From assembly GCA_041664245.1 (NCBI GenBank), contig JBAYLC010000005.1, positions 8,695 through 72,694 on the forward strand: a DNA stretch of 64,000 bases, given 5' to 3'. This stretch comes from Minisyncoccota bacterium (GTDB taxonomy: Bacteria > Patescibacteriota > Minisyncoccia > UBA6257 > 2-01-FULL-56-20). This document shows positions 2,245 to 57,588 of the stretch, piece after piece. Within the stretch, counting starts at the first letter, position 1, and each line of letters starts with the position of its first letter. The notes under the pieces were generated by a model. It made no database searches and was not told the origin of the DNA. It saw only the letters and a program-made list of their open reading frames with translations. The translations under genes and the position numbers were made by a program.

Positions 2245-3225
2245 ATGCTGAAGGCTCTAGTTACCGGTGTTACTGGACAAGACGGCTCGTATCTAGCCGA
2301 ATTATTGCTTAGTAAAGGTTACGAAGTCCACGGTGTTATCCGCCGCGCTTCAACCTTCAATACTGCCCGTATCGAGCATATCTATCAAGATCCCCACGAA
2401 GAAAAGCCCCATTTAATTCTTCATTACGGAGATCTTTCGGATGCCAACACGATCCGAAAGTTAATCTATAAAATTCAACCCGACGAAATTTATAATCTTG
2501 GCGCCCAATCCCACGTTCGTGTTTCTTTTGATATTCCTGAATACACTGCCAACATTACTGGTCTTGGCACACTCCGCATGCTTGAAGCTATTAAAGATTT
2601 CGAAGAACATATTGGGAAAAAGGTTAAATTTTACCAAGCTTCTAGCTCGGAAATGTTCGGTGCCACTCCACCGCCCCAAAATGAAGAAACTCCATTTTAT
2701 CCGCGAAGCCCATATGCAATTGCCAAAGTTTTTTCCTACAACACGGTAAGAAATTATCGGGAGGCATATGGCCTGTTTGCCACAAATGGAATTCTATTCA
2801 ATCACGAAAGTCCTCGGCGAGGCGAAACTTTTGTCACTAAAAAAATTACTCGCGGTTTAGCTAGTATAAAAAATGGATCAGCCAAAAAAATTTATCTTGG
2901 TAATCTAGAGGCGAAGCGCGATTGGGGTTACGCTCCTGAATATGTTGAGGCCATGTGGTTAATGATGCAACAGCCAAAACCAGATGACTATGTAATCGGC
3001 ACAGGCGAGAGTCATTCCGTTGAAGAATTTTTAAATGCCGCTTTTTCGTACTGCAACCTTAATTGGCGAGATTATGTAGAAATTGATCCTCGTTATTTTC
3101 GTCCCACAGAAGTTGATAATTTAATTGCCGATCCTAAAAAAGCCAAAGAAAAATTAGGTTGGGAAGCAAAGACTAAATTTAAAGATTTAGTCAAAATAAT
3201 GGTTGACGCTGATATAAAAATTTAA
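2245..3225 (+). CDS. gmd: GDP-mannose 4,6-dehydratase
   Basis: Signature [18 protein letters not shown], extended SDR fold, HYGDLSD and YAIAKV motifs. Confidence 0.95.
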
Positions 3226-5829: not shown

Positions 5830-6774
5830 ATGTCATCTAAAAAAATTCTTATAACCGGCGGGGCGGGCTATATTGGATCGATATTGGTTCCGGAGTTATT
5901 ACGAGCGGGGCACGAGGTAACCGTTATTGATAATTTTACCTATAACCAGTCCTCGCTTTTGGATGTTTGTAATTTTCAAACCCTTACCCTGATTCGCGGT
6001 GACGCTCGTGATGAAAAAATAATCTCCCAGCACATTAAAGAAAAGGATTTTATTATTCCGCTTGCTTGCGTTGTTGGTGCTCCTGCTTGTAATAGAGACC
6101 CAGTTGCCGCTCGCACCATTAATCTTGAAGCAGTAGAACTTATTCTAAAACTTCGCGAAAAATGTCAAAAAATTATTTTTCCCAATACCAATAGCGGCTA
6201 TGGTCGGATGGCCGAAGGTGTCGCATTTTGTGATGAAACAAGTACTCTCGATCCAATCTCGCTTTACGGCAAACTAAAAGTGCAAGCGGAAAAAGAACTG
6301 CTCGAAGCGGGAAACGCGATCACTTTACGACTCGCTACCGTCTTCGGGATTAGTCCTCGTATGCGCCTCGATCTTCTTGTGAATGATTTTGTTTATCGCG
6401 CCGTTAATGATGGGGCCGTTGTATTATTCGAGCCTCATTTCAAACGTAATTATATTCACATCAGAGATGTGGCGGGTGCCTTTATGCATGCGATGGAAAA
6501 TTTTGAAAAAATGAAAAACGAACCCTATAATGTCGGTCTTTCAGACGCTAACTTAAGTAAGATTGAACTTTGTGAGGAAATAAAAAAGCAAATTCCCAAC
6601 TTTGTTTTCATAGAATCAAAAATAGGAGAAGATCCTGATAAACGGAATTATATTGTAAGTAATACTAAAATTGAAAATATGGGTTTCAAGCCCCGAATAT
6701 CGCTTACCGAGGGAATTTCTGAGCTGATCAAGGGTTATCAAATTATTAAAAGAAATAACTTCTCTAATCTCTAG
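5830..6774 (+). CDS. NAD-dependent sugar epimerase/dehydratase (extended SDR)
   Basis: ILITGGAGYIGS Rossmann motif and extended-SDR length. Confidence 0.8.
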   Translation: MSSKKILITGGAGYIGSILVPELLRAGHEVTVIDNFTYNQSSLLDVCNFQTLTLIRGDARDEKIISQHIKEKDFIIPLACVVGAPACNRDPVAARTINLEAVELILKLREKCQKIIFPNTNSGYGRMAEGVAFCDETSTLDPISLYGKLKVQAEKELLEAGNAITLRLATVFGISPRMRLDLLVNDFVYRAVNDGAVVLFEPHFKRNYIHIRDVAGAFMHAMENFEKMKNEPYNVGLSDANLSKIELCEEIKKQIPNFVFIESKIGEDPDKRNYIVSNTKIENMGFKPRISLTEGISELIKGYQIIKRNNFSNL

Positions 6775-6786: not shown

Positions 6787-6815
6787 TTGACAACAATAGC
6801 TCGGAGAATTATATT
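6787..6815 (+). promoter_or_regulatory. sigma70-type promoter (TTGACA-17 bp-TATATT) upstream of the radical SAM gene
   Basis: Read directly: TTGACA at 6787-6792, 17-nt spacer, TATATT at 6810-6815. GAAGGAG RBS before ATG 6881. Confidence 0.6.
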
Positions 6816-6880
6816 GCTCCTAGGTCTTTGATACCTTAAATTCGTCAATTCAAATAGTATCTCATAGAAGGAGTTGTAGA

Positions 6881-8392
6881 ATGAGTCGTTTAGACGCAGT
6901 TTTTGTTATCCCTGGCAACCTCACTCAGGTTTACCAAGTTTTTGCTAAAGAACACGCCATCGAACCGCCTATTTTCGCCCTCTGGATAGCGTCTCATCTA
7001 GAGAGCAAAGGGTATAGTTTCGAATTTATTGATGCCGTGCCGTCCAATCTTTTTCCAGAAGAAGTTGCTGCTGAAGTCGTTCATCTCAACCCAAGACTTG
7101 TTATTGTACCTGTCTATGGTTCTCAACCTTCTGCTTCAACTCAAAACATGCCAGCCGCGCGAAGAACGTGCCAAGCAATAAAAGATCTCAAGCCAGATCA
7201 AAAAATCCTCGTCACTGGCACCCATCCCGCGGCATTACCAGAGCGAACTCTTAGGGAAGAACCAGTGGATTTTGTTTGCGACGGTGAAGGTCCCACAACT
7301 CTTATCGAAATTCTCGAGGTCTTGAGAAATGGGGATGATGTTTCCAATGTGGGAAGTCTTTGGTACTGGGAAAGTGGGAAACCCAAATACACTCATCCGG
7401 CGCGGAATGTTACCGAACTTGAGTTTGATCCGGACATCTGGCGATTTCTTCCGATGAGTCGCTACATTGCCCACGATTGGCATACTGGTTATCGAGATTT
7501 TGCGTCTCGCAAGCCCTACGCTTCTATCCTAACTACGCTTGGTTGTCCTTTCCGATGTTCATTCTGCTGCATTCAAACTCCGTTTAGAGCGGGTGAGGCA
7601 GCTATAGGGCGTAATCCAAAATCGAACTCTTACCGTTTCTGGTCGCCGCAGGTCATCATCAAAACCATAGAAGTGCTCGTTAGAAAGTATGGTATGGAGC
7701 ATATCAAGATTCACGATGAGTTATTCGTCTTGAATCAAAGGCATGTGAGTGCCATTTGCGCTTTAATCAAAGAACGCTTCAACGATGATTTGAATATTTG
7801 GGCTTACTCTCGTGCCGACACAGCCCAGCCTAAGTCTTTAGACATCCTAAGGGCGGCCGGGATTCGTTGGCTAGCTGTTGGTATTGAGCGCGACGGTAAA
7901 AACAAATCTTTTTCTGGCGAGGATATACTCCGAGTTAGAGAAATGATTAAGGATGCTGGTATTAAATTAGCGGCGAACTACATTTTTGGACTGCCCGGTG
8001 ATACCAAGGATAGCATGCAGGCTACACTAGATATGGCTCTGGCAATAAATTCGCCATTCGCTAATTTCTATTGTGCTATGGCTTACCCCGGTTCCGAACT
8101 CTATGAGGAAGCCGTAAGAAGAAATTTACCATTGCCAGATAGTCCTGGTGGTCCCGGTTGGATTGGTTACTCTCAGCACGCCTACGAAGCCACGCCTCTT
8201 CCGACCGATTCTCTTTCCGCCGCAGACATTCTTCGTTTTAGGGATGAAGCCTGGAGGAGATACTACACCAACCCAAAGTTTCTTTCCATGCTTCAGGATT
8301 GGTATGGTGAAAACGGCGAAGAAGCAGAGAGAAACATAAAAAAAATGACCTCTCTATCTCCCCTCCGCCGAGCGCTTTTCGAAAAAACATGA
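6881..8392 (+). CDS. B12-binding-domain radical SAM enzyme
   Basis: N-terminal cobalamin-binding Rossmann-like domain. Cys cluster CPFRCSFCC (CxxxCxxC plus an extra C), then a TIM-barrel-length region. Class-B radical SAM architecture. Confidence 0.8.
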   Translation: MSRLDAVFVIPGNLTQVYQVFAKEHAIEPPIFALWIASHLESKGYSFEFIDAVPSNLFPEEVAAEVVHLNPRLVIVPVYGSQPSASTQNMPAARRTCQAIKDLKPDQKILVTGTHPAALPERTLREEPVDFVCDGEGPTTLIEILEVLRNGDDVSNVGSLWYWESGKPKYTHPARNVTELEFDPDIWRFLPMSRYIAHDWHTGYRDFASRKPYASILTTLGCPFRCSFCCIQTPFRAGEAAIGRNPKSNSYRFWSPQVIIKTIEVLVRKYGMEHIKIHDELFVLNQRHVSAICALIKERFNDDLNIWAYSRADTAQPKSLDILRAAGIRWLAVGIERDGKNKSFSGEDILRVREMIKDAGIKLAANYIFGLPGDTKDSMQATLDMALAINSPFANFYCAMAYPGSELYEEAVRRNLPLPDSPGGPGWIGYSQHAYEATPLPTDSLSAADILRFRDEAWRRYYTNPKFLSMLQDWYGENGEEAERNIKKMTSLSPLRRALFEKT

Positions 8393-8415: not shown

Positions 8416-8955
8416 CTAACGAGGGCTTTTTTCGGAGTCCTCGTTTTTTATTTTATGAATTATTTTTGTAGTTGATATTTTTTCAAATTCAGGCGGGCAG
8501 TACCTATCAAGGATAACAAGTTCGACCCCTGTCTTTTGAGCTATTATTTTTCGATAAGGAATATCTCCTGCGTCCTCGTTGATCACGTAAATATCAGGCT
8601 TGAGTTTGTTCAAGGCCACTTCTATAGACCAAAGGACATGATTATCTCCCGGTATTATCTCATCCATAAAACAATAATCTACTGGCCTTAAGGAATCCAC
8701 CATCTTTAAACGAACATGCTGATTTAAAATAGGGCGGTGGTTACCTTTATTACTTCTAATTGCAGCATCACACCCCACCATAACCACTAGTATGTCTCCG
8801 CGCATTTTGCAATCTTCAAAAAAAAGCACATGCCCGGCATGAGTGACATCAAAACTACCAGAGCAAAAAACAATTTTTTGATCCCGGTGTCTGTTTCTTA
8901 TAATCGCTACATCTTCTAATTTCGTGACCGCCATTAGTGAAAGAATATAACACAA
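8416..8955 (-). CDS. cytidylyltransferase-like nucleotidyltransferase (TagD / HldC family)
   Basis: SGSFDVTHAGHVLFF (HxGH) and C-terminal ISTTKI motif. The only minus-strand gene in the first 17 kb. Confidence 0.7.
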   Translation of the reverse strand: MCYILSLMAVTKLEDVAIIRNRHRDQKIVFCSGSFDVTHAGHVLFFEDCKMRGDILVVMVGCDAAIRSNKGNHRPILNQHVRLKMVDSLRPVDYCFMDEIIPGDNHVLWSIEVALNKLKPDIYVINEDAGDIPYRKIIAQKTGVELVILDRYCPPEFEKISTTKIIHKIKNEDSEKSPR

Positions 8956-11149: not shown

Positions 11150-11179
11150 TTGACAACGCCAAAACCGAAGCGGTATACT
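11150..11179 (+). promoter_or_regulatory. sigma70-type promoter (TTGACA-18 bp-TATACT) upstream of the DegT-family gene
   Basis: Read directly in the 305-bp intergenic region. Confidence 0.5.
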
Positions 11180-11257: not shown

Positions 11258-12436
11258 ATGTTAGAAAAAAAAATAAAATATTTTCTCGCCGAAGACACAA
11301 TTGATCATAAGGACATAGATGCGCTTATCGAGTGGCTTAAGACTTATCCGCGCCTTACAAAAGATAAACTTACTATTGAGTTCGAAGGAAAATGGAATAA
11401 TTGGTTGGGAAGGAAATATTCCGTATTTAATAATTCCGGTTCTTCTGCAAACTTACTCATGTATTATGCGCTTCTTCTGTCCGGAAGATTAAAAAATAAG
11501 AAAATCATCGTGCCTAGCGTAGGGTGGGTTACAACTATCGCTCCCGCAATCCAATTCGGATTTGAGCCGATTATGTGTGAGGCAGATAAAAAAACATTTG
11601 GACTCGACTTAGAGCATTTAGAAAAACTTTTAATTGAGCACCGGCCGAGTACGGTTATTTTTGTGCAAGTTTTAGGTGTCCCGAATAAAATGGAAGAACT
11701 ATTAGCGCTTAAAGAAAAATACGGATTCACATTGCTTGAAGATGCTTGTGCGGCAATGGGATCAACTTATCAGGGCAAAAACGTAGGCACATTCGGAGAC
11801 ATGGCAAGTTTCTCGTTCTACTTTGGCCATCAGATCTCAACAATCGAGGGTGGCATGGTCTCTACCGATGATAAAGAGCTAAACGATCTACTCTTAATGC
11901 TTCGGAGTCATGGTTGGGATAAGGATTTAGACAATGAGACAAGGGCTGGTTTGCGCTCAAAATACAACATAGATGATTTTCATTCCCCATTTGTTTTTTA
12001 CGAACCCGGATTTAATCTGCGATCAACTGATCTCAATGCCTTTCTAGGAATTCGCCAAGTGGACAAAATGGAGTGGTTAGTGAGGCGCAGAAATGAAAAC
12101 CACCTACTCTACAAAAAAATTCTTAGAGACAGATTTTATTTTCAGGAATATGATTCAGATTCCACAATTTGTAGTATCCATTTTGGTATGCTTGCAAAAG
12201 ATACCGAGGAGAGAAGGAAAATAGTAAGCGCCTTAGAGCAAGAAGGTGTAGAAACGCGTATTTTTTCGGCTGGTAATCTTGGACTCCATCCATTTTGGGC
12301 AAACCGGTATGGCGTGGCTTCTTTCCCGATGGCCGACCGCATCCACCACACCGGACTTTTTCTACCAAACAATCCTTCTCTAAAAATTGAAGATATAGAA
12401 TTTATATCGAAAACAGTTTTGCAAAGCGTTCCATAA
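11258..12436 (+). CDS. DegT/DnrJ/EryC1 family PLP/PMP enzyme; sugar 3-dehydratase type (ColD/E1-like) rather than aminotransferase
   Basis: DegT fold. At the position of the Schiff-base Lys (SF..K..GEGG) it has SFYFGHQISTIEGGMV. His replacing Lys is the hallmark of GDP-4-keto-6-deoxymannose 3-dehydratase ColD and CDP-hexulose 3-dehydrase E1. Confidence 0.65.
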   Translation: MLEKKIKYFLAEDTIDHKDIDALIEWLKTYPRLTKDKLTIEFEGKWNNWLGRKYSVFNNSGSSANLLMYYALLLSGRLKNKKIIVPSVGWVTTIAPAIQFGFEPIMCEADKKTFGLDLEHLEKLLIEHRPSTVIFVQVLGVPNKMEELLALKEKYGFTLLEDACAAMGSTYQGKNVGTFGDMASFSFYFGHQISTIEGGMVSTDDKELNDLLLMLRSHGWDKDLDNETRAGLRSKYNIDDFHSPFVFYEPGFNLRSTDLNAFLGIRQVDKMEWLVRRRNENHLLYKKILRDRFYFQEYDSDSTICSIHFGMLAKDTEERRKIVSALEQEGVETRIFSAGNLGLHPFWANRYGVASFPMADRIHHTGLFLPNNPSLKIEDIEFISKTVLQSVP

Positions 12437-12683: not shown

Positions 12684-13292
12684 ATGACCAAACAAGAACT
12701 TATCGAGTTCGAAAACGAAATTGCCGACATCTACTGCGCCGGAAAAATTCTAGCGCCGATTCATTTATCTGATGGTAATGAAGATGTTCTAATAAATATA
12801 TTCAAAGACATTAAGGAAGACGACTGGGTATTTTCTACGTGGCGCAGCCACTATCACGCTTTGCTTCATGGTGTGCCGCGAGAAAAAGTAAAAAATGAAA
12901 TTATTAAAGGAAATAGTATCACATTAAGTTTTCCTGAGCATCGATTTTTTACGTCGGCAATCGTTGGGGGAATCGTGCCTATCGCCATGGGTGTCGCGCT
13001 TGGCCTCGAGATGAAAAAAGAAAAGCACCATGTTTGGTGTTTTGTAGGGGATATGACCGCCGAAACCGGCGGGTTTTATGAGTCCGTAAAATACGCCAAC
13101 AATCACAAATTACCCGTTACTTTTATAGTGGAAGATAATGAGGAGAGTGTGGGAACGCCTACGAGATCTGTTTGGGGATACGGGCCTAATCAAAAATCTG
13201 ATTACCTCCTGTACCCGCACGATAATATGATCTATTACCATTATAAAAAGAAGTATCCGCATGTCGGTGCGGGGAAGTGGGTTACCTTTTAG
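12684..13292 (+). CDS. thiamine-diphosphate enzyme, PP (diphosphate-binding) domain subunit; transketolase/E1-alpha-like
   Basis: GDMTAETGGFYESVKYANNHKLPVTFIVEDNEES fits the TK/E1 ThDP motif GD...E...A...L...DN..S. Confidence 0.7.
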   Translation: MTKQELIEFENEIADIYCAGKILAPIHLSDGNEDVLINIFKDIKEDDWVFSTWRSHYHALLHGVPREKVKNEIIKGNSITLSFPEHRFFTSAIVGGIVPIAMGVALGLEMKKEKHHVWCFVGDMTAETGGFYESVKYANNHKLPVTFIVEDNEESVGTPTRSVWGYGPNQKSDYLLYPHDNMIYYHYKKKYPHVGAGKWVTF

Positions 13293-13842
13293 TAATTACA
13301 CAGCTATGCGCTACTTAGAAGAAATTAAGCGGGCAATGGTGCTTCTTGCCGAGGATGATCGCACGGTATTTGTTGGGCAGAGCGTGGCTTATCCCGGAAA
13401 CGCAATTTTTAATTCTCTCAAAGATATTCCTACTACAAAGAAAATAGAGTTACCTGTTTTCGAGGAAACTCAAATGGGGTTATCGATAGGGCTTGCGCTT
13501 AATGGTTTTATCCCTGTTAGTATCTTTCCGCGTTTTAATTTTCTCCTTTTAGCTATGAACCAACTCGTAAATCACTTGGATAAAATTTCACATATTTCGC
13601 ATGGAGAATTACAACCAAAGGTTATTATCAAAGTAATGGTAGGGAGTGTCCACCCATTTGATCCCGGAATTCAACACAAAAGTAATTTTACTGAAGCTCT
13701 CCGTAAGCTTGTCGATTCCGTTATTGTCGAAGATCTTACGGAGCCAGAACTGATTTTCCCCGCCTACGAACGCGCACTCTCGCGGAACGATGGCAAGTCG
13801 ACTATTCTTGTCGAATACGGAGATTATTATAACGAAAAATAA
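13261..13842 (+). CDS. thiamine-diphosphate enzyme, Pyr (pyrimidine-binding) domain subunit; transketolase central-domain-like
   Basis: Overlaps the upstream gene by 32 nt (coupled). Length and FVGQSVAYPG...GLSIGLALNGFIPV resemble the TK/E1-beta Pyr domain. No transketolase C-terminal domain. Confidence 0.55.
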   Translation: MSVRGSGLPFSNYTAMRYLEEIKRAMVLLAEDDRTVFVGQSVAYPGNAIFNSLKDIPTTKKIELPVFEETQMGLSIGLALNGFIPVSIFPRFNFLLLAMNQLVNHLDKISHISHGELQPKVIIKVMVGSVHPFDPGIQHKSNFTEALRKLVDSVIVEDLTEPELIFPAYERALSRNDGKSTILVEYGDYYNEK

Positions 13843-13851: not shown

Positions 13852-14850
13852 ATGATTATTTCCCGAACACCTTTTCGTATATCCTTTTTCGGAGGGGGCA
13901 CCGATTATCCCGCTTGGTATAAGGAAAATGGTGGCGCCGTTCTTTCGGCATCGATCGATAAATATTGTTACCTTACGTGTCGGTATCTACCTCCATTTTT
14001 TGAGCATAAGACAAGAGTTGTTTGGTCTAAAATTGAAACGGTGGCGCAAACAGAAGAGATTCAACATCCGGCCATCCGGGAGACCATAAAATTTTTAGGA
14101 ATCCAAGATGGCTTACAAATCCATCATGACGCAGATCTTCCCGCACGCTCCGGGATTGGTTCGAGCTCATCCTTTACAGTAGGGCTTTTGAACTCTCTCT
14201 ATACTCTCCTAGGGAAAAGTCCTACCAAAACACAACTTGCGCTCGAAGCGATTCATGTAGAACAAGAACTCGTAAAAGAAAATGTGGGCTCCCAAGATCA
14301 GTCCGCCGCCGCGTTTGGGGGATTTAACAAGATTGAATTTGGTGGTCCTGATCATATTCGCGTGACGCCTATCGGCATATCACAGGCCGATCTCGACGCA
14401 TTACAGAGCCATCTAATGCTTTTTTTTACAGGATTTGCAAGAAATGCCTCAGAGATTGCGGCAGAGCAGATTCGGTTAACCTCGCAGAAAGCAAAAGAGC
14501 TCAAAATAATGTATAGCATGGTAAATACGGCAGAAGAATTACTCGAAAAGAGGGATTTCGACGGTTTTGGAAAACTTCTCCACGAAAATTGGAAGATCAA
14601 AAGGACGCTTTCGTCACAAATCAGCAATAATGCTATTGATGAAATTTATGAATTAGGTAAATCCGCTGGAGCTTTGGGTGGAAAGCTTTTAGGAGCCGGA
14701 GCGGGTGGATTTATACTTTTTTTTGTGAAGCCGGAACATCAGGAAAGGGTAAAAGCGGCGCTTAGTAAGTTGTTGTATGTGCCGATAAAATTTGAAAAAG
14801 AGGGAAGCCAAATTATCTTTAATAATGGCGCGAAAACTTATACTTCCTAA
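13852..14850 (+). CDS. GHMP kinase, D-glycero-alpha-D-manno-heptose 7-phosphate kinase (HddA)-like
   Basis: MIISRTPFRISFFGGGTDYP and PARSGIGSSSSF (GHMP ATP motif). Confidence 0.8.
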   Translation: MIISRTPFRISFFGGGTDYPAWYKENGGAVLSASIDKYCYLTCRYLPPFFEHKTRVVWSKIETVAQTEEIQHPAIRETIKFLGIQDGLQIHHDADLPARSGIGSSSSFTVGLLNSLYTLLGKSPTKTQLALEAIHVEQELVKENVGSQDQSAAAFGGFNKIEFGGPDHIRVTPIGISQADLDALQSHLMLFFTGFARNASEIAAEQIRLTSQKAKELKIMYSMVNTAEELLEKRDFDGFGKLLHENWKIKRTLSSQISNNAIDEIYELGKSAGALGGKLLGAGAGGFILFFVKPEHQERVKAALSKLLYVPIKFEKEGSQIIFNNGAKTYTS

Positions 14851-15568
14851 TAAAATTAAGTATAAAACCAAGGAATCCGCTAATCCTCCAGAGATTGACG
14901 TAGTAATTTTAGCCGGTGGATTGGGAAAACGGTTACGTCGTGCAATCTCCGGTAAGCCTAAGGTGCTCGCAGAGGTGGCTGGGCGGCCGTTTCTCGATAT
15001 ATTAATTAACCATTTATTAACTGCCGGTTTTTATCGGGTTATTTTAAGTATTGGATATTTAAAAGATCAGATCAAAGATCGCTACAAAGGGAAGGGAATT
15101 ATTTTTGCCGAGGAAGAAGATCCTTTGGGAACTGGCGGAGGAATAAAAAATGCCCAACAGTTTATAAAGAGTGAAAATTTTTTTGTTATGAATGGAGATT
15201 CTTGGATATCAGATGGAATAGACATGCGCGCAATTCACGATTTTCATAAAAATAAAAAAGCGTTAATCACTATGGTGCTCTCTCGGCCCAGAGAGGAGAA
15301 GGATTACGGCGCAGTATTCTTGGGTGAAGATAATCGGATCAGCCGTTTTAATGAAAAATCAAAAGAGGAGAATGGCCATTTCTTAAATGCCGGCATCTAT
15401 ATCATGAATAAAAAAGTTTTATCTAAAATGAAAACAACTCCCTTCTCCCTTGAGGTTGATTTTTTTCCAGGATTAATTGGCGGAGCTTTTTATGGCTTCC
15501 CTATAAACGGAGAAGTAATTGATATTGGAACACCCGAAAGATATAAAGCTGCCCAGCAGAAATTTTAA
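14825..15568 (+). CDS. sugar-1-phosphate nucleotidyltransferase (HddC-like guanylyltransferase)
   Basis: VVILAGGLGKRLR motif. Track ORF begins at 14792; the internal ATG at 14825 is a more likely start. Start remains uncertain. Confidence 0.75.
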   Translation: MARKLILPNKIKYKTKESANPPEIDVVILAGGLGKRLRRAISGKPKVLAEVAGRPFLDILINHLLTAGFYRVILSIGYLKDQIKDRYKGKGIIFAEEEDPLGTGGGIKNAQQFIKSENFFVMNGDSWISDGIDMRAIHDFHKNKKALITMVLSRPREEKDYGAVFLGEDNRISRFNEKSKEENGHFLNAGIYIMNKKVLSKMKTTPFSLEVDFFPGLIGGAFYGFPINGEVIDIGTPERYKAAQQKF

Positions 15569-17036: not shown

Positions 17037-17846
17037 ATGAGATCAAAAGTAGAGTTAGAAAAACGGATTGCCCTTATCACGGGCGGAAGTAACGGAATAG
17101 GGAAGGCAATCGCTGTGGCACTCGCCCGCGAAGGCGCTGATATTATTTTATGCGCCCTAGACTCGAAATCTCTGAGGGAAGCACAGGTAGAAATCGAAAA
17201 ACTTGGCGTGAAAGTTTGGAGTATGGCTTTCGACGCAACCGATCCTACTCAAGTAAAAAAATTTTTCTCAGATATTATCGCGAAGATCGGCCAGCTCGAT
17301 ATTCTTGTAAATAACGTCGGCGGTGTTCGCGATCACGCCACATTTAAGGAATTGGATGATAAACAATGGATTGATTCCTGGAAGCTTAACTTTATGACAA
17401 TGGTATATTTTACGCGTGAGGCATTGCCTTTACTCGAGAAATCAGAGCACGCGCGAATTATTAATATTTCAAGTAGTGCTGGTAAGCAGCCTGGAGGATT
17501 TAACCCCCACTATGGAGCGGCAAAAACCGCCGTTAATTCCTTAAGTAAGTATTTGGCGAATCAGCTCGCTCCCCAAAAAATTTTAGTAAATACCATAACT
17601 CCAAGCACAGTGAATGGCGGTTTATGGCATCCCCATATAGAGGATAAAGCGCGGCGTTCCGGAGTTTCCATCGCAGAAGCAACTAGGTTAATGGAAGAAG
17701 AGGTGATTAAGAAAACCCCGCTTGGGCAAGTTGGCACACCAGAAGATGTTGCCGAACTCGTTGCGTTTCTTGCTTCTGATAGAGCTAAGTTTATAACGGG
17801 AACCTGCATCGCCGTTGATGGTGGGCTTATAAAGTCTATTTTCTAA
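17037..17846 (+). CDS. SDR-family oxidoreductase (paralog of 9190-9993)
   Basis: LITGGSNGIGKAIA. Collinear with the 9190 protein across the full length. Confidence 0.85.
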   Translation: MRSKVELEKRIALITGGSNGIGKAIAVALAREGADIILCALDSKSLREAQVEIEKLGVKVWSMAFDATDPTQVKKFFSDIIAKIGQLDILVNNVGGVRDHATFKELDDKQWIDSWKLNFMTMVYFTREALPLLEKSEHARIINISSSAGKQPGGFNPHYGAAKTAVNSLSKYLANQLAPQKILVNTITPSTVNGGLWHPHIEDKARRSGVSIAEATRLMEEEVIKKTPLGQVGTPEDVAELVAFLASDRAKFITGTCIAVDGGLIKSIF

Positions 17847-17867
17847 TCTGGGTAAGCCTGAATTCGG

Positions 17868-19145
17868 TTATTTACTTATAATTTTAACCTCTGGAAGTGG
17901 GATTATGAATTTTGATCTTAAACCTTTCTTTCGAAGCTTCTTAATGATTGTATCCGCAATATGCCAGGAGAAAAGCAATACGTAATCTGGCTGATCTATG
18001 AAAAGTTGTTTTTCGTCAATGATTGGTATGTGCGTACCCGGTGAGTGAAGGCCGAGCTTCAGTGAACTGGATTGTTCAGCGAGGTAGGGAATAAGCAAGG
18101 AATCAATATGGCAGTAATTAAGAATGGGACTCGAGCGGCCCGGGCTTCCAACGCCCGCAATAGTCTTTTCTTTTAGTTTTAGTTCGGAGAGAAATTTCAC
18201 TAATTTTAACCGCGAAGTTTCGATTCTCTTTTTAAAATTAATATAGGTCGGTTGCTTGTAGAGCCCGGCTTTTTCTTCCGCCTGAATAAGCGAGGCGATG
18301 TGAGGGGATTGAGAAAGATTTTTTCCTTTCGTGGCAAAAACCCGAATTGATCCTCCAGATGAGGAGATACGTTCAGCATCCGTGAGGGTGAAGCCGAATT
18401 TTTCGAAAAGAAGCGAAAGTGGCTTCAGTGAATAAAAACGAAGATGTTCATGATACATTGTGTCATATTGCACTTTTTGAATCGTGTCTAAAAGATATTG
18501 TGATTCGGATATAAACACTCCGCCTGGTTTAAGTAGGGTATAAACCCCTTCCACGAAAGAGCTGAGATTATTAATGTGGGCAAAAACGTTTGTTGCGATA
18601 ACAAGCGAGGCGGTGCCGTGTTTTTTCACGATCTGCTTAGCGATCTCCTTCGTAAAGAAATCATTTATAGTCGGTATCCCTTGTTTTATTGCTATTCGCG
18701 CTACGTCCGTTGGCTCGATTCCTAAAACCCGCATCCCCTTTTCCTTGAAAGGTTGGAGCGCAGTGCCGTCGTTTGATCCAATATCCACAATAAGTGATCC
18801 TTTCGGTAGTTTTAATCGTGCCACGGTTGCCTCCGCAAGCTCTTTAAAATTATCAACAAGCATTTGTGTGATCCCTGTTCGATATGGATATTTTTTATGG
18901 AAAACCACTTGTGGCGGCGGAATAAAATCTAATTGAACCAATCCGCACTTAACACACCGTACCACGTTAATCGGGTAGTGAATTTCCTCTTCTTTTATCT
19001 CTTTAGCATTGAGTAAAACATCGCAGGGTGGTTGATGGTCCAAATTTACAATATCGATTAGCTCTTTAGAGCCGCAAATCTGGCAGGTCGTTAACTTTCC
19101 CAATGGGTTTTTATTCATTTTTTTAATTTCCTTTATATTCCGCAA
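17868..19145 (-). CDS. NDP-hexose C-methyltransferase (TylCIII/Methyltransf_13-14 type) with N-terminal Zn ribbon
   Basis: CQICGSKEL...CDVLL...VVRCVKCGLVQLD zinc-binding N-terminus. Class I SAM fold (IVDIGSNDG). Confidence 0.75.
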   Translation of the reverse strand: MRNIKEIKKMNKNPLGKLTTCQICGSKELIDIVNLDHQPPCDVLLNAKEIKEEEIHYPINVVRCVKCGLVQLDFIPPPQVVFHKKYPYRTGITQMLVDNFKELAEATVARLKLPKGSLIVDIGSNDGTALQPFKEKGMRVLGIEPTDVARIAIKQGIPTINDFFTKEIAKQIVKKHGTASLVIATNVFAHINNLSSFVEGVYTLLKPGGVFISESQYLLDTIQKVQYDTMYHEHLRFYSLKPLSLLFEKFGFTLTDAERISSSGGSIRVFATKGKNLSQSPHIASLIQAEEKAGLYKQPTYINFKKRIETSRLKLVKFLSELKLKEKTIAGVGSPGRSSPILNYCHIDSLLIPYLAEQSSSLKLGLHSPGTHIPIIDEKQLFIDQPDYVLLFSWHIADTIIKKLRKKGLRSKFIIPLPEVKIISK

Positions 19146-19233
19146 TTATAAACAAAGCGAATCTCTTTTACAAATTTACACCGCGACTCAAGTGTTGTCT
19201 GAGGTTGATTTTAAATGTACAATAATACCCGCA

Positions 19234-19800
19234 ATGATTTCTATGGATAGTATTGAAAAAGCGTTTGAGCAGCACGGCGAAATAGTGCGAAAAACCGCGG
19301 AAAGCATGGCGGCTGATATAAAAAAAGGCGCCTCAATACTAGAGCAGGCGGTAAAAAACGGTCATTGTGTCTTTATGTGTGGTAATGGGGGTTCGGCGGC
19401 GGATGCCCAGCACTTTGCGGCGGAATTTGTTTGCAAATATAAAAACGACCGGCGCCCCTTCTCGGCGGTAGCTCTTACTGTAGATACTTCTGCGCTAACC
19501 GCGATTGGTAACGATTTTGGCTTTGAGAACGTTTTTAGCCGCCAAATCGAGGCACTCGGTAGGAAAGAAGATGTACTCATTGCAATCACAACAAGCGGAA
19601 TTTCAAAAAATATTTTAAATGCCATCGTTAAAGCAAGGAAGTTAGGACTAACCGTTATAGCGCTTACTGGCGCCCGCGGGAAAAATATGGACGCTGATCT
19701 TGTTATTGCGATACCATCCGAAGAAACTGCGCGCATTCAAGAAATGCATGAACTGATCTATCACTCATGGTGTGAATATATTGAGTCAAAAATTATTTGA
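19234..19800 (+). CDS. gmhA: sedoheptulose-7-phosphate isomerase (SIS domain)
   Basis: VFMCGNGGSAADAQHFAAEFV is the GmhA signature. Track ORF starts at 19192; internal ATG 19234 is more plausible. Confidence 0.85.
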   Translation: MISMDSIEKAFEQHGEIVRKTAESMAADIKKGASILEQAVKNGHCVFMCGNGGSAADAQHFAAEFVCKYKNDRRPFSAVALTVDTSALTAIGNDFGFENVFSRQIEALGRKEDVLIAITTSGISKNILNAIVKARKLGLTVIALTGARGKNMDADLVIAIPSEETARIQEMHELIYHSWCEYIESKII

Positions 19801-19848: not shown

Positions 19849-21033
19849 ATGAAATTAGCATTTCTTCATCTTTATCTTGCGACTGCAAGCGGCGACCCAA
19901 GAATGATTTTGTCTATCGCCAAGGAGTTCAAATCGCAAGGGCACGAGGTAAAAGTATATTGCTCCGAATTTAATCCATTATTTTTAACAGATCTCCATAG
20001 GGATCTGAATATTAAAGTTGTTCCACCCCGCGCCTCTCTAAGATTAGCCCTAGGCGCGTCTAGTTTTCTTGGTAAGATCGCAGAACGTATTCGTCGCACT
20101 AAACTTTACACCGACGCGGCATATCGTATTGCGGATAAATTAGATAAAGATTTTGATTTCATTTTTTGCGAGAATGACTACACGTATAAAGCGGGAGCTC
20201 GATATAAAAAGTTTAATTCGCGTGCGAAGGTCGTTTGGATTATGAATAATCCTCCATTTTATCATTCCCCCAAGAATAACTTTCTCGTAAATATAATTAG
20301 TCAATGCGCTGCCGTGTATGAGGCGGTCGTCGCAAAAAAATTCGTAAAATGGATTGACTGGGTAGTAGTCTATGATAAAAAAAATAAAGCGGATGCGGAG
20401 ATATTAGGTTTTAAAACAAAACTCATTGGGAATCCCTTGGATTTTGATTATTTTTATGCTCCCGTAAAAAAACTTATTTCCGGTCAACCAATTAAAATTC
20501 TCGCTGTTGGAGCACTGAGTCCGCTTCGTAGATTTGAAGACGTGGTGGCAGTAACCGCGATGTTACGAAAACGGAATCTTGATGTGAGAGCAATAATAGT
20601 TTGTAAGGATTACTGGTCGGACAAAAAATACCGAGAGTCATTCACCTCGTTTATAGAAAACTCTGGAGTTAAAGAGTATATTGATATCCGATTTGATGGC
20701 GTGGAAGAGGAAGAAATTATGCAGATGCTCCGAGAATCCCAAGTAAGCGTGGTAACAAATATCGCGAAAGTGTGGATCGCGACCGCGTGCGAGGCAATGG
20801 CAGCGGGGCTACCTCTTATACTTACAAAAACAACCTCATTAGCCGATGTTCTATCCGATGGGGAAAACGCTCTCTTTGTTGATCCCCGGCACCCAGAGCA
20901 GATTGCCGAAAAAATGGAAATGTTAATTAAGAATTCAGAACTCTACGCAAATGTTGCTTTAGCTGGGCAGCGGTATGTGAGAGAAAATTTAAGTTTCCCT
21001 AAATTTGCACAAGAAATTATCAAATATCCATGA
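19849..21033 (+). CDS. GT4 glycosyltransferase (paralog of 15640-16890)
   Basis: EAMAAGLPLIL motif. C-terminal half alignable to the 15640 protein. Confidence 0.8.
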   Translation: MKLAFLHLYLATASGDPRMILSIAKEFKSQGHEVKVYCSEFNPLFLTDLHRDLNIKVVPPRASLRLALGASSFLGKIAERIRRTKLYTDAAYRIADKLDKDFDFIFCENDYTYKAGARYKKFNSRAKVVWIMNNPPFYHSPKNNFLVNIISQCAAVYEAVVAKKFVKWIDWVVVYDKKNKADAEILGFKTKLIGNPLDFDYFYAPVKKLISGQPIKILAVGALSPLRRFEDVVAVTAMLRKRNLDVRAIIVCKDYWSDKKYRESFTSFIENSGVKEYIDIRFDGVEEEEIMQMLRESQVSVVTNIAKVWIATACEAMAAGLPLILTKTTSLADVLSDGENALFVDPRHPEQIAEKMEMLIKNSELYANVALAGQRYVRENLSFPKFAQEIIKYP

Positions 21034-21806
21034 AAAAAATATTACGCCTTACGAAAGAATTTTTACGTGCCATTTTTCTGTATAGAAATTTTTGGACCTA
21101 TTATCTTGTGCGCGCGGGCTTATCACGGCACAAGAAAGTCGTGATAAAACTTCGGAACGGACTAATGTATTTAATCTTCACCGAAACAAGCCAAATTGTT
21201 ATCCTTAATGAAATTTGGAATTTTGGGATTTATGACGAGCTAGAAAGGTTCATTCATGATAATTCTATCGTTATCGACATTGGTGCGAACATTGGAGTTT
21301 TTTCTATTAAAGCCTCACGCCTTGCAAAAAACGTGAAGGTTTTAAGTTATGAACCATTCCCAAAAAATTTTGAAATTCTAAGAGAAAATACAAAACTCAA
21401 CGAACTAGAAGAAATTGTTTTTCCCAAAAAAGAGGCTGTGGCTGGCAGAAAGGGAGAGCTTGAGCTCTTTTTCAATCCCAATGATTCCGGGGATGTTTCA
21501 TCACGCCAGCAAAAACAAAAAAATCAATCCCAGTCCATTAAAGTTCCATCAATAACACTCGAAAATATTTTCCGAGAGAACGATATCGAAGTCTGTGATT
21601 TTTTGAAGATTGACTGTGAGGGTGCTGAAGAGGAAATACTGCTTAATACTCCAAGGGATTTATTTAGCCGGATAAAAAGCATCACGCTCGAGTGGCATTA
21701 TAGCCTCAATAAAATGACCACTGATGAGCTCGGGCAGTTTTTCAAAAATATGGATTATAAAATTAAATACAATCCTTCCACTCTTACTTTTTATGCTTGG
21801 CGTTAG
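21030..21806 (+). CDS. FkbM-family methyltransferase
   Basis: IDIGANIGVFS motif. Start overlaps the upstream stop. Confidence 0.75.
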   Translation: MKKILRLTKEFLRAIFLYRNFWTYYLVRAGLSRHKKVVIKLRNGLMYLIFTETSQIVILNEIWNFGIYDELERFIHDNSIVIDIGANIGVFSIKASRLAKNVKVLSYEPFPKNFEILRENTKLNELEEIVFPKKEAVAGRKGELELFFNPNDSGDVSSRQQKQKNQSQSIKVPSITLENIFRENDIEVCDFLKIDCEGAEEEILLNTPRDLFSRIKSITLEWHYSLNKMTTDELGQFFKNMDYKIKYNPSTLTFYAWR

Positions 21807-26655: not shown

Positions 26656-27642
26656 ATGATTATAACACGCACTCCTTTCCGAGTTACTTTAGGTGGTGGC
26701 GGTACCGACCTCCCCTCCTACTATTCTAAATACGGTGGATTTATTTTCTCCGCCGGCCTTGATAAATATATGTTTGTGAGTGTTAACCGCCCCGTTGTTG
26801 ATGATCTGATTCGCCTTAAATATTCCAAGAGTGAAACCGTTGAGCGTCTTGATCAGCTTCAACACGAAATAGCTCGGGAAACGCTTCGGATGATGGGCAT
26901 TGAAAAAGGAATTGAGATTAATTCCATTGCCGACATCTCTGCTGGTACCGGTCTTGGTTCGTCCAGTTGCTACGCTGTCGGTCTTCTCCGCGCTCTCCAC
27001 ACTTTAAAGCGGGAATATGTTCCTCTCCAGCAAATTGCCGAAGAAGATTTCAAAGTCGAAGCCGAAATTCTCGGCCGGCCTATCGGCAAGCAAGATCCCT
27101 ACCTCGCCGCTTTCGGCGGGCTTACTATTCTGGAAATTGAAAAGGACGGGAAAGTTAAAATTCGTAAAGCTAATGTTTCTGACGAAACCATTGATGCCTT
27201 AAATCGCAATATGCTCTTGTTTTTCACCGGTACCACTCGTAGTGCTGATGATATTTTAGGGGAACAGTCCACCGGGGTTAAGGAAGAAAAAAAAGATGTT
27301 ATTGAAAGCATGCATTACATTAAAGAGCTTGGTTACGAAATTTTGGAAGCTGTTGAAAGCGGTAATGTTGATGAGGTTGGTCGTTTGTTCCATGCTCATT
27401 GGCAACACAAAAAAAAGATTTCCGCTAAAATGTCCAACGAGCATTTCGATAAAATTTACGAAGTCGCGCGAGAAAATGGCGCTTTGGGTGGAAAAATATC
27501 TGGCGCTGGCGGAGGCGGTTTCTTCACTTTCTACGCGGAAAAAAATCACGGTAAATTAAAAAAGGTAATGGCCGAAATGGGTCTTCGTGAAATGCGCTAT
27601 CATTTTGACCTCGAGGGATCTAAGGTGTTGGTTGATTTCTAA
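26656..27642 (+). CDS. GHMP kinase, HddA-like sugar kinase (second copy)
   Basis: MIITRTPFRVTLGGGGTD and GTGLGSSS. Confidence 0.8.
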   Translation: MIITRTPFRVTLGGGGTDLPSYYSKYGGFIFSAGLDKYMFVSVNRPVVDDLIRLKYSKSETVERLDQLQHEIARETLRMMGIEKGIEINSIADISAGTGLGSSSCYAVGLLRALHTLKREYVPLQQIAEEDFKVEAEILGRPIGKQDPYLAAFGGLTILEIEKDGKVKIRKANVSDETIDALNRNMLLFFTGTTRSADDILGEQSTGVKEEKKDVIESMHYIKELGYEILEAVESGNVDEVGRLFHAHWQHKKKISAKMSNEHFDKIYEVARENGALGGKISGAGGGGFFTFYAEKNHGKLKKVMAEMGLREMRYHFDLEGSKVLVDF

Positions 27643-27657
27643 TTAGTAAAGTTTTCT

Positions 27658-28965
27658 ATGTGGCCCTATAAAATCGCTGTTCTTGGCCTCTGGCATTTGG
27701 GTGAAATCTATTCCGCCGGCCTATCCGACTTAGGGCATCAAGTAGTTGGTTTGAGTGAAGACGAATCATTAATCAGTAATTTTCAAAAAAATATTCCACC
27801 TTTGCCGGAGCCGAATCTTGAAGAAACTCTTAAAAATAATCAAGCCGTTGGTCGCTTAACTTTTAGTGCTGATTTTTCAAAGATTGAAGGTTGCGATGTG
27901 CTTTGGGTTACTTTCGATACCCCAGTAAATAATCAAGATGAAGTTGATCTAACTCTGATTTGGTCAGCGCTGGGAAAATCGTTACCGCATCTGAAAAATC
28001 AATCCCTGATTATTATTTCAAGTCAGATTCCAGTTGGCACTTCAAACAAAATTTGTGAATTTATAAATCAAAAGCGGCCAGATTTAAATTTTGATTATAT
28101 TTATTCCCCGGAAAATCTTCGCCTTGGCGAGGCCCTAGAGTGTTTCAAAAATCCCGGCCGAATTGTTTTTGGTGCTTTTAGTTCCAAGGCATCAGAAAAA
28201 TTTAAAGATATTCTATCGGGCCTTAAAACTGAATTTATCGAAATGAGCCCGGTTTCAGCCGAGATGTCTAAGCACGCCATTAATGCTTTTCTTGCCACTT
28301 CCGTTAGTTTTATAAACGACCTCTCTGATCTTTCCGAAAAAGTTGGAGCCGATATTATCGATGTTTCTCGGGCTCTTAAATCAGAACCAAGAATCGGCCC
28401 CAAGGCTTTTCTCAGCGCCGGTATTGGTTTCGCCGGCGGCACACTTGGTCGGGATCTTCAAGCTTTAATTAAATCCGCCAAAGACCAAAATATTTCTCTG
28501 CCAGTCATTGAAAGTATCTACGAAAAAAATAAAAATCGCGCCGAAGCCATATTAAATATTCTTCAAAAAAATTTAGGGGATTTTAAAAATAAAAAAATTT
28601 CTATTCTTGGCCTGACTTATAAACCCGGGACAAGAACCCTTCGCCGTTCAAGATCTTTGGAAATAGCGCTAAAGTTAAAAAATCTAGGTGCCCGCCTTTC
28701 TCTCTGCGATCCGCAAGTTGATGAGAAGGAACTGGCCTCTTTTGGCGATTTCGATTTTTCTCGCGATCCCTATCAGGCCGTTGCCAACGCTGAGGCCGTG
28801 ATTGTCGCTACCCCTTGGCCGGAGTTCAGGGATTTAGATTTTCAAAAATTAAAAGAAGTGGCATCTTCTAATGCTATTATTTTTGACACCTCTAACTTTT
28901 TTTCAGAAAAAGAATCTATAATTAAAAAAGTCGGTTTTATCTATCTTGGCATTGGCCGCAAATAA
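27658..28965 (+). CDS. UDP-glucose/GDP-mannose dehydrogenase-family protein with degenerate active site (probable pseudo-dehydrogenase or altered chemistry)
   Basis: Fold-level match (KIAVLGL N-terminus, ILGLTYKPGTRTLRRS C-terminal UDP-binding motif). NAD motif reads GLWHLG instead of GxGxxG. Active-site block GFAGGTLGRD aligns to GYGGYCLPKD, so the catalytic Cys aligns to Thr. Confidence 0.7.
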   Translation: MWPYKIAVLGLWHLGEIYSAGLSDLGHQVVGLSEDESLISNFQKNIPPLPEPNLEETLKNNQAVGRLTFSADFSKIEGCDVLWVTFDTPVNNQDEVDLTLIWSALGKSLPHLKNQSLIIISSQIPVGTSNKICEFINQKRPDLNFDYIYSPENLRLGEALECFKNPGRIVFGAFSSKASEKFKDILSGLKTEFIEMSPVSAEMSKHAINAFLATSVSFINDLSDLSEKVGADIIDVSRALKSEPRIGPKAFLSAGIGFAGGTLGRDLQALIKSAKDQNISLPVIESIYEKNKNRAEAILNILQKNLGDFKNKKISILGLTYKPGTRTLRRSRSLEIALKLKNLGARLSLCDPQVDEKELASFGDFDFSRDPYQAVANAEAVIVATPWPEFRDLDFQKLKEVASSNAIIFDTSNFFSEKESIIKKVGFIYLGIGRK

Positions 28966-28969
28966 TTCA

Positions 28970-29800
28970 ATGGATTTAGAAAATAAAGTTGTTCTTATAA
29001 CCGGCGCTAGCCGGGGTATTGGCAAGGCAGTCGCCGCCGCCTTCTTAAAAGAAGGAGCAAAGGTTATGCTTGCCGCCCGCTCCGAAGAAGAATTAAAAAT
29101 CACTCAACAAGAGTTTAAGATTAATTATCCGTTCGTTGAGATCGCTGCTTTTGATGTCTCTAATTTTCTCGAATCAACAGAAGTTGTTAAAAAAACTGTT
29201 GCCGCCTTTGGAACCATCGATATTCTTGTAAATGCCGCGGGAATCTATGGTCCCATTGGTCCGTCTGAAGAAATAGATATAAATCTTTGGAGAAATACCT
29301 ATGAAGTAAATGTTTTTGGAACTTTCCAGATGATCCATCAAGTCGCCCCTATCATGATCAAAAATAAATCCGGCAAAATCATAAATTTTTCCGGCGGTGG
29401 CGATGGGCCCCTTGCCCGTTTCAGCGCTTACAATTCCTCTAAAGTTGCCATTGTCCGCCTTACCGAAACCTTAGCCGTGGAATTTAAAGATTATAATCTT
29501 GAAGTAAATTGTCTCGCCCCTGGGCCGGTCAATACTAAATTTTTAGATGAAGCTCTTGCCGCCGGTGAAGGGAAGGTAGGGCCGGATAGGTATGCTATTC
29601 TTCAAAAACAAAAAGCGGACGGCGGTGTTCCTCCAGAAAAAACTGCCGAGCTCTGCGTTTTTCTAGCTTCATCAAGATCAAATGGCCTAACGGGTAAATT
29701 TTTAAGCGTCGTCTGGGATAAATGGCAAGACTGGGGGCCGGAAGAAATTAAAAAAATTATGGCGACCGATGTCTATACTCTGCGCCGGGTAAAAATATGA
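28970..29800 (+). CDS. SDR-family oxidoreductase
   Basis: VVLITGASRGIGKAVA. Track ORF starts at 28946. Confidence 0.8.
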   Translation: MDLENKVVLITGASRGIGKAVAAAFLKEGAKVMLAARSEEELKITQQEFKINYPFVEIAAFDVSNFLESTEVVKKTVAAFGTIDILVNAAGIYGPIGPSEEIDINLWRNTYEVNVFGTFQMIHQVAPIMIKNKSGKIINFSGGGDGPLARFSAYNSSKVAIVRLTETLAVEFKDYNLEVNCLAPGPVNTKFLDEALAAGEGKVGPDRYAILQKQKADGGVPPEKTAELCVFLASSRSNGLTGKFLSVVWDKWQDWGPEEIKKIMATDVYTLRRVKI

Positions 29801-30804: not shown

Positions 30805-30853
30805 TTATCTTTGACACAAATTTTGGTTTGGTTTAAACTAGAACCAACTCAAT

Positions 30854-31582: not shown

Positions 31583-31587
31583 GAAAT

Positions 31588-32765: not shown

Positions 32766-32782
32766 TTTTCGTTTTATAAATC

Positions 32783-45214: not shown

Positions 45215-45393
45215 TCTATTGACAAATTTGTATATTCACAATATAATCTAAACCTCAAAAATAGTGTGTTAAATACACGCTTTTTTTGTTTCCAGCAACT
45301 TTATAAGAATTAAATAGGAAGGGAAAAGTAGTAATTCAGATCTATAAAAAAGCAGCAATCGTTCACTAATCCACAGAAAGAGAGGAAAAAGAA

Positions 45394-57501: not shown

Positions 57502-57588
57502 GGAGGGTTCGCATAGTGGTCTAGTGCGCAGTCCTGGAAAGACTGTGTGGGGAAACCCACCGAGAGTTCGAATCTCTCACCCTCCGCC
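57502..57588 (+). tRNA. tRNA-Ser (anticodon GGA)
   Basis: Manual fold. Acceptor GGAGGGT/ACCCTCC, D-arm CGCA...TGCG, anticodon stem CAGTC/GACTG with loop CTGGAAA, long variable arm TGGGGAAACCCACC, T-arm GAGAG-TTCGAAT-CTCTC, discriminator G. Confidence 0.85.

Follow-up and report, generated by a model that had tools for sequence, protein, structure and literature searches.

A B12-binding-domain radical SAM gene and its nucleotide-sugar cassette in the surface-glycan locus of a Patescibacteria genome

What does a radical S-adenosylmethionine (SAM) enzyme with a B12-binding domain do among the genes for a bacterial surface glycan? The question is raised by a gene for a 503-aa protein in a stretch of 64,000 nucleotides of contig JBAYLC010000005.1 (the whole stretch is called the window here), which belongs to a metagenome-assembled genome of Candidatus Paceibacterota, within the Patescibacteria or candidate phyla radiation (CPR). 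Here we report that orthologues of this gene recur, in more than ten phyla, inside a cassette of nucleotide-sugar genes built around a thiamine diphosphate (ThDP) enzyme, and that close relatives of the cassette exist without the gene, which looks like an optional tailoring step. Methylation is only our leading guess for its chemistry: we give a probability of roughly 0.45 to a cobalamin-dependent radical SAM C-methylation of an unactivated sp3 carbon in a nucleoside diphosphate (NDP)-linked, C-branched 3,6-dideoxy sugar.

The open reading frame (ORF; Table 1) and its Pfam matches bear out the B12-domain radical SAM protein with the motif CPFRCSFCC that had been read from the sequence. PF02310 is matched with 53.7 bits against a cut-off of 32.1, over profile positions 11-120 of 121, and PF04055 with 47 bits against 29.5. 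The CxxxCxxC motif, the PF04055 core and a predicted fold matching radical SAM structures place the protein in the radical SAM superfamily, and the fusion of an N-terminal Rossmann-type B12-binding domain to the core is the architecture of class B. An AlphaFold (AF2) model made with 42 homologues has a predicted local distance difference test score (pLDDT) of 92.3, and its nearest folds by Foldseek are TsrM, AprD4, MgmA, OxsB and CysS. Judged from the alignments, the N-terminal domain resembles a bona fide cobalamin-binding domain, because the family profile aligns with TsrM, OxsB, CysS and TokK and because it is conserved nearly as well as the core (mean column identity 0.65 vs 0.70).

The three cysteines C222, C226 and C229 are invariant across the 42 aligned homologues. 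The additional cysteine of the motif, C230, had been called unusual. It is carried by 195 of 199 close orthologues and by just 49 of 125 more distant family representatives; sister subfamilies have N, M, A or S at this position. Since the residue is kept in close orthologues and variable in distant ones, it is a signature of the subfamily and not a cluster ligand; a role as [4Fe-4S] ligand or universal residue was rejected on the count among the distant representatives. The conservation of a cysteine that the cluster does not need would suit a radical SAM sugar epimerase, in which Cys230 would return a hydrogen to the opposite face of the sugar. We regard this as quite improbable: the residue directly follows a cluster ligand, an unlikely site for a hydrogen donor that faces the substrate, the sister subfamilies replace it, a B12 domain would be superfluous for epimerisation, and the cassette already contains short-chain dehydrogenase/reductase (SDR) and GMER-like epimerases.

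Some family members are interrupted or fused. Inteins (Hint, LAGLIDADG or HNH) occur in several members of 650-990 aa (P0134, P0141, P0158, P0171, P0173, P0165, P0223 and P0275). In five of these the insertion lies inside the cluster motif immediately ahead of the second Cys of CxxxCxxC, which is the +1 residue of the intein (GCPFx / C...HN / CSFCC). In P0193 (1173 aa), two B12 radical SAM units are joined in tandem.

Mapping to a radical SAM subgroup with hidden Markov models (HMMs) led to the class of B12 radical SAM enzymes and no further, as no curated NCBIfam family cut-off is reached. The top models are HpnJ (TIGR03471; 118 bits, 4.7e-34, cut-off 577.6) and BchE (TIGR02026; 107.5 bits, 7.8e-31, cut-off 481), followed by a long tail of models for other B12 radical SAM families. 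By sequence and model together, the protein is a class-B-type enzyme to which no characterised protein is close. Its group of orthologues is large and has a sharp boundary, with homologues clustering at about 45-55% identity; a library of 1.84 billion representatives holds 516 clusters (50% identity) at E<=1e-30, and in the genome collection the nearest relative is no closer than 50% identical. The family is uncharacterised and very widespread, within a known class of enzymes.

Among solved structures, the family profile matches AprD4 (PDB 6fd2) best (7.8e-23), over core residues 195-426 only; matches to TsrM, OxsB, CysS and TokK follow and extend through the N-terminal B12 domain. AprD4 is also a top fold match, with a template modelling (TM) score of 0.64-0.73, it acts on a sugar, and a conserved SDR gene stands immediately or nearly upstream of the radical SAM gene in many loci. 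The protein could then be a cobalamin-free diol dehydratase whose carbonyl product is reduced by the SDR, in the style of AprD4/AprD3, leaving an extra deoxy position. This is unlikely given the restriction of the match to the core, an N-terminal domain that matches true B12-binding domains and PF02310, a motif that is CX3CX3C in AprD4 and CX3CX2C here, and a score of 39.5 bits for the NCBIfam AprD4 model (NF033070) against a cut-off of 500.

For the gene neighbourhood, 80 genome loci with homologues at 44-50% identity were fetched, and their ORFs were called and clustered. The radical SAM ORF was recovered in 75 loci, and neighbours were counted within six genes of it. The sampled loci come from Patescibacteria, Legionellales, Poribacteria, Omnitrophota, Verrucomicrobiota, Planctomycetota, Chlamydiae, Burkholderiales, Nitrospirota, Myxococcota, Acidobacteriota and others. 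The most frequent neighbour is a ThDP enzyme (55/75 loci), followed by an extended SDR (cluster c0; 48/75), an HddA-like GHMP kinase (43/75, in 25 as the very next gene downstream), a DegT-family enzyme (42/75), an HddC-like nucleotidyltransferase (30/75) and a GmhA-like SIS isomerase (11/75). The usual order is SDR, radical SAM, kinase, ThDP alpha, ThDP beta, DegT, nucleotidyltransferase, SIS isomerase and SDR, and a GMER/ColC-like SDR is additionally present in many cassette loci. Every component is present in the window, in a rearranged order. Of the genes that accompany the radical SAM gene, those for the SDR and the GHMP kinase are conserved best: the SDR orthologues of 43 loci are 44-73% identical to that of the window (median 57%), and the kinase orthologues of 45 loci mostly 53-67% (range 37-67%, median 56%). 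Both proteins surpass the radical SAM protein in conservation.

This nucleotide-sugar and glycan synteny of the orthologues in many phyla supports the sugar-tailoring role put forward in the original prediction. It also answers the concern that the best homologues might be non-sugar enzymes in unrelated neighbourhoods, as the orthologues lie in sugar loci and HpnJ and BchE are simply the nearest named HMMs. Hopanoid or chlorophyll/tetrapyrrole genes are absent from the annotated recurring neighbour clusters, most other flanking genes being unannotated, and neither hpnI/hpnK nor bch genes are among the recurring neighbours examined. Pfam likewise finds no tetrapyrrole genes in the glycan locus of the window (about 203-42331), the rest of the window being partly annotated.

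The composition of the cassette says more about the sugar. A His in place of the PLP (pyridoxal phosphate)-binding Lys of a DegT protein is the hallmark of ColD/RfbH-type sugar 3-dehydratases, and the DegT protein of the window has this replacement. It is established for Campylobacter that a 4,6-dehydratase and a PLP enzyme of this sort, acting as 3-dehydratase on GDP-6-deoxy-4-keto-heptose, convert GDP-heptose to GDP-3,6-dideoxy-4-keto-heptose (PMC10680097). The ThDP slot is filled by short E1 alpha/beta subunits (about 200 + 190 aa, as in the window), by full-length E1 alpha/beta subunits, by split or fused transketolases or, in one CPR relative, by a YerE-type TPP_enzyme_N/M/C protein. A 2025 review names YerE-like decarboxylases, alpha-keto-acid-dehydrogenase-2 heterodimers and transketolases as the known or proposed ThDP enzymes for acyl branching of keto sugars (PMC12247030; PMC9306805). 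The presence of exactly those three classes in the slot favours reading the cassette as a yersiniose-like route that leads to a 3,6-dideoxy sugar with a C-branch; by gene content, it has the activation genes, the His-type DegT, the ThDP carboligase and the reductases of a ThDP-branched 3,6-dideoxy-sugar cassette.

Two unusual contexts bear on the radical SAM protein. In P0147 (L090 1234-3723), 44% identical to the protein of the window and encoded directly after the conserved SDR, it is naturally fused to an E1-alpha domain. This fusion suggests that the protein and the branching step are directly connected in function; it is found on a single short metagenome contig, where an assembly artefact is possible. 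In Legionella maceachernii ATCC 35300 (L019 6573-12418), the orthologue lies outside a sugar cassette and heads an operon with genes for a 5'-methylthioadenosine (MTA)/5'-deoxyadenosine phosphorylase (PNP_UDP_1), an MtnA-like IF-2B isomerase, a class II aldolase, an adenine phosphoribosyltransferase and a SAM synthetase. This operon looks like one for 5'-deoxyadenosine/MTA salvage and SAM supply, a context that fits stoichiometric consumption of SAM. A PNP_UDP_1 phosphorylase gene also neighbours the orthologue in L002, L037 and L048.

Is the radical SAM gene needed by the cassette? A search seeded with the ThDP alpha subunit of the window gave five loci on long contigs (L082-L086), and in all five the radical SAM gene is absent within +/-10 kb. 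In L082, L084, L085 and L086 the SDR, both ThDP subunits and the kinase are 56-83% identical to those of the window, and in L083 high identity is confined to the ThDP pair. A close ColD-type DegT (85%) is found in L082 and L084 only, and L084 is almost collinear with the window save for the radical SAM gene. The existence of close cassettes without the gene argues for tailoring rather than skeleton building: the gene depends on the cassette and the cassette does not depend on the gene, the pattern expected of a tailoring step. The idea that the enzyme makes the aldehyde or ketone acceptor for the ThDP enzyme is unlikely for the same reason, as close cassettes work without it. In L082, where the gene is missing, GHMP kinase and nucleotidyltransferase are fused into one protein of 577 aa (17078-18811), and this fusion suggests that the two act consecutively on the same sugar.

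The close ties to a ThDP enzyme that forms C-C bonds, including one fusion, would also suit a different division of labour, in which the radical SAM and ThDP enzymes jointly build a new NDP-sugar skeleton. The radical SAM enzyme would here carry out a non-methylating radical rearrangement, a ring contraction or a C-C cyclisation of the branched NDP-sugar, giving a carbocyclic or rearranged sugar, or the two enzymes would extend the branch iteratively. HpnJ and BchE, the best curated families, stand ahead of all methylase models and offer analogues in the glucosamine ring and the porphyrin side chain, HpnJ acts on a sugar moiety (PMC12583986), and OxsB, which acts on a nucleoside sugar, is among the structural neighbours. 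Yet the HpnJ and BchE scores lie so far under their cut-offs that the similarity is at superfamily level only, a gene that close cassettes can spare fits decoration better than a core skeletal step, and these loci are not connected with any known product of this type. Rearrangement or cyclisation by the radical SAM enzyme, the main rival of C-methylation, is the less probable of the two, and joint skeleton building seems doubtful. If true, the latter would mean a surface-glycan sugar not seen before in many mostly uncultured phyla, including B12-scavenging, genome-reduced CPR bacteria.

For C-methylation, the following pathway is proposed. A sugar phosphate, probably a heptose phosphate derived from sedoheptulose-7-phosphate by the GmhA-like isomerase, would be phosphorylated at C1 by the HddA-like kinase and converted by the HddC-like transferase to an NDP-sugar, probably a GDP-sugar. 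A 4,6-dehydratase and the His-type DegT enzyme (ColD/RfbH-like 3-dehydratase) would then give an NDP-3,6-dideoxy-4-keto sugar. The ThDP enzyme would attach an acyl branch of two carbons at the keto carbon, by the logic of YerE, the alpha-keto-acid-dehydrogenase-2 heterodimers and the transketolases, after which SDR enzymes would reduce or epimerise the branched product. The SDR adjacent to the radical SAM gene was rejected as the 4,6-dehydratase by its motif (TNSGYG, no Asp/Glu pair), and the 4,6-dehydration must consequently fall to the GMD of the locus or to another SDR. If cobalamin use, substrate and methylation chemistry are as we infer, the radical SAM enzyme would act beside the ThDP step. 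SAM would be reductively cleaved at the [4Fe-4S] cluster held by C222, C226 and C229, the resulting 5'-deoxyadenosyl radical would abstract a hydrogen at an unactivated sp3 carbon, either in the sugar or in its new branch, and methylcobalamin in the N-terminal domain would pass a methyl group to the substrate radical, in the manner of Fom3 and GenK. This would give the sugar of the cassette in a methyl-extended form. An earlier, more specific idea, methylation at C7 of a 3,6-dideoxy-heptose to give erwiniose/caryophyllose-type sugars, was dropped, because these sugars are explained by YerE-like enzymes with longer keto-acid donors and their clusters have no radical SAM gene (PMC9306805).

Several points weigh against C-methylation and its setting. 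Neither the closest named families (HpnJ and BchE) nor the closest solved sequence (AprD4) belong to methylating enzymes, which makes methylation a leading guess only, and the methylases score lower (TsrM 6.9e-12, CysS 9.6e-9, TokK 2.7e-7, HpnR 34 bits). The substrate is read from the gene neighbourhood, and a hexose, supplied as GDP-mannose via the GMD of the locus, is as possible as a heptose. The cassette of the window is rearranged, with the radical SAM gene paired instead with an HldC-like transferase gene, and the SDR next to it is, by motif, no 4,6-dehydratase. For the five loci that lack the radical SAM gene, the inspection covered +/-10 kb only. Finally, a search of the available literature library found no experiment on any member of the family and no link of the family to ThDP cassettes.

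The pairing with an HldC-like gene is seen in the window, L081, L087 (twice) and L088, all of them CPR. It was rejected as a general feature of the family, as the 80 genome loci are without it save for two weak matches. A divergent second B12 radical SAM paralogue occurs in CPR glycan loci at L087 9134-10543 (minus strand; 32% identity) and L089 7274-8779 (24% identity), and the L087 copy adjoins an HldC-like gene of its own.

The transcription signals of the radical SAM gene were compared with those in L081 and L087, two related loci whose radical SAM proteins are 95% and 69% identical to that of the window. A strong sigma-70-like promoter lies in a 106-nt intergenic gap upstream of the gene; it had been described as perfect and is one position short of that (11/12). 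Promoter-like sites at a loose threshold are at chance level in the window (50 found vs 48 expected), and sites with at least 11/12 matches are enriched about 8-fold (11 in the window vs 1.4 +/- 1.2 in Markov-1 simulations). Further sites of this quality lie just 5' of genes at 11150 (DegT) and 42426 (DsbA-like), and also at 45219; this CPR genome seems to make use of consensus-type promoters. The -35 hexamer TTGACA is invariant in L081 and L087, where the spacer sequence has diverged. The terminator-like hairpin folds in the window, L081 and L087 (z = -2.2, -3.3 and -3.9), in L087 from a different stem sequence. With promoter and terminator hairpin both seen across the three loci, the gene is very probably a monocistronic unit, in line with the promoter of its own that had been noted. 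An Rfam search of the whole window found no riboswitch upstream of the gene, including those of cobalamin or SAM type; the sole match is a tRNA gene (57502-57586).

A gene with its own promoter and terminator, and with a G+C of 0.46 against about 0.40, might also be a stray BchE/HpnJ-type or housekeeping gene unrelated to the glycan locus. Conserved synteny has largely refuted this: in most of the 75 loci, across phyla, the orthologues lie inside the same sugar cassette, one is fused to the ThDP subunit of the cassette, and the annotated neighbours include no hopanoid or tetrapyrrole genes, most flanking genes being unexamined. The G+C of the gene (0.46 at 7001-8000, surroundings about 0.34-0.44) is compatible with a later acquisition of the radical SAM/HldC-like pair.

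The gene stands, as originally placed, between an SDR gene and an opposite-strand HldC-like nucleotidyltransferase gene (Table 1). The surface-glycan locus around it spans about 42 kb, with a Wzy_C protein (203-1624) at one end and a Bac_transf initiating transferase (40997-42331) at the other, and contains a flippase, many glycosyltransferases, two heptose/octose-type activation modules and a GDP-fucose module (gmd, NUDIX, fcl-like, GT10). The ORFs of the two ThDP subunits (12684-13842) overlap by 32 nt. The TTG start of the HddC-like nucleotidyltransferase (14792) overlaps the kinase gene by 59 nt, and its true start is probably further downstream, because the gene call in L081, a 95% identical locus, gives a shorter product (247 aa vs 258 aa). 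The second higher-sugar module (26656-33535) comprises a GHMP kinase (26656), a transaldolase (30854), an SIS isomerase (31588), a HAD phosphatase (32172) and an NTP transferase (32783), with UDP-glucose (Glc) dehydrogenase-family, SDR and GFO/IDH/MocA genes between them. Its transaldolase, isomerase, kinase, phosphatase and nucleotidyltransferase mirror the logic of GDP-octose formation in lincosamide biosynthesis.

Table 1. Positions of the radical SAM gene, its signals and domains, and the neighbouring sugar genes in the window
Feature	Position	Strand	Details
Sigma-70-like promoter, TTGACA-17-TATATT	6787..6815	+	11/12 consensus positions
Ribosome-binding site, AAGGAG	6868..6873	+	7 nt 5' of ATG; kept in L081
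B12-binding-domain radical SAM protein	6881..8392	+	503 aa, ATG start; NCBI MFA6354715.1 'radical SAM protein'
N-terminal B12-binding (Rossmann) domain	6959..7312	+	aa 27-144; Pfam PF02310, E=2e-14
Near-invariant loop VYGxQPSASTQNMPAA			aa 78-93, inside the B12-binding domain of the radical SAM protein; from homologue conservation
Radical SAM core	7529..8035	+	aa 217-385; Pfam PF04055, E=3.5e-12
CxxxCxxCC motif (CPFRCSFCC)	7544..7570	+	aa 222-230; C222, C226 and C229 for [4Fe-4S], extra C230
Terminator-like hairpin	8418..8445	+	12 bp + T-run, 3' of stop; overlaps last codons of the convergent gene
Locus GMD	2245-3225
Extended SDR, epimerase/dehydratase family	5830..6774	+	TNSGYG...YxxxK; without the Asp/Glu pair of 4,6-dehydratases
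HldC / RfaE-domain-II-like (CTP_transf_like) nucleotidyltransferase	8416..8955	-	convergent; probable start ATG 8934
DegT-family, ColD/RfbH-type sugar 3-dehydratase	11258..12436	+	His for PLP-binding Lys (SFYFGHQISTIEGG)
Short ThDP enzyme, E1-alpha-like	12684..13292	+	PP domain
Short ThDP enzyme, E1-beta-like	13261..13842	+	PYR domain
HddA-like GHMP sugar kinase	13852..14850	+
HddC / ManC-like sugar-1-phosphate nucleotidyltransferase	14792..15568	+	start codon uncertain
C-methyltransferase	17868-19145	-	Pfam
GmhA-like SIS phosphoheptose isomerase	19192..19800	+	207 bits vs cut-off 276
FkbM-type methyltransferase	21030-21806		Pfam

Other parts of the original prediction fared less well. It counted three other methyltransferases, of which Pfam recognises two in the locus (17868-19145 and 21030-21806), and with only these two the heavily C/O-methylated glycan that it foresaw is not established. 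It did not notice the conserved set of ThDP enzyme, ColD-type dehydratase and GHMP kinase, to which the gene is an optional addition. It also stated that such enzymes in glycan loci usually C-methylate or epimerise sugars, for which there is no characterised example: the words sugar, polysaccharide, lipopolysaccharide and heptose do not occur in a 2026 review on B12 radical SAM enzymes, and a literature search turned up no cobalamin radical SAM enzyme that had been characterised with a nucleotide sugar destined for a cell-surface glycan. The relevance of the present gene lies in a recognisable, transferable cassette, which supplies concrete candidate substrates for the enzyme, and in related natural loci that either have or lack the gene, whose comparison could show which reaction it catalyses and uncover a new rare sugar. 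About 42 kb of the tiny genome of this CPR bacterium are given over to glycan synthesis, which is probably reliant on scavenged B12 and on anoxic conditions.

Compared with known systems, the protein shares, by domain content, the B12-domain plus radical SAM architecture of Fom3 and GenK. GenK carries out C-methylation on an sp3 carbon of a sugar. Fom3 methylates a nucleotide-linked sp3 carbon, in cytidylylated hydroxyethylphosphonate (HEP-CMP; PMC8158854), and the CPR pairing with a gene of the cytidylyl/adenylyl-transferase family recalls the logic of Fom1/Fom3. In contrast to both systems, the predicted substrate here is an NDP-deoxysugar for a cell-surface glycan and not an antibiotic intermediate. 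HpnJ and BchE are B12-domain radical SAM proteins of similar length, but the scores do not place the protein in either family and its neighbourhood is one of nucleotide-sugar biosynthesis. AprD4, the apramycin 1,2-diol dehydratase, is similar in core sequence, fold, adjacent reductase partner and the sugar nature of its substrate; it binds no cobalamin, a sign that related architecture can lack the cofactor (PMC12931638), and differs from the present protein in its CX3CX3C motif, its family score and its N-terminal domain, which here matches B12-binding domains. TsrM (PDB 6wte), OxsB, CysS, TokK and MgmA/QCMT have the same two-domain fold (Foldseek E 5e-21 to 1e-16, TM 0.57-0.66) at 15-19% identity, with different substrates and C-terminal domains. 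The yersiniose and erwiniose pathways (YerE/YerF, ErwE) resemble the cassette in their NDP-sugar, 4,6-dehydratase, 3-dehydratase, ThDP C-branching enzyme and reductase. They start from CDP-glucose, whereas the starter genes here are of heptose/GDP type (GmhA, HddA, HddC-like), the ThDP enzyme here is usually of E1 alpha/beta or transketolase type, and the described yersiniose and erwiniose clusters contain no radical SAM enzyme.

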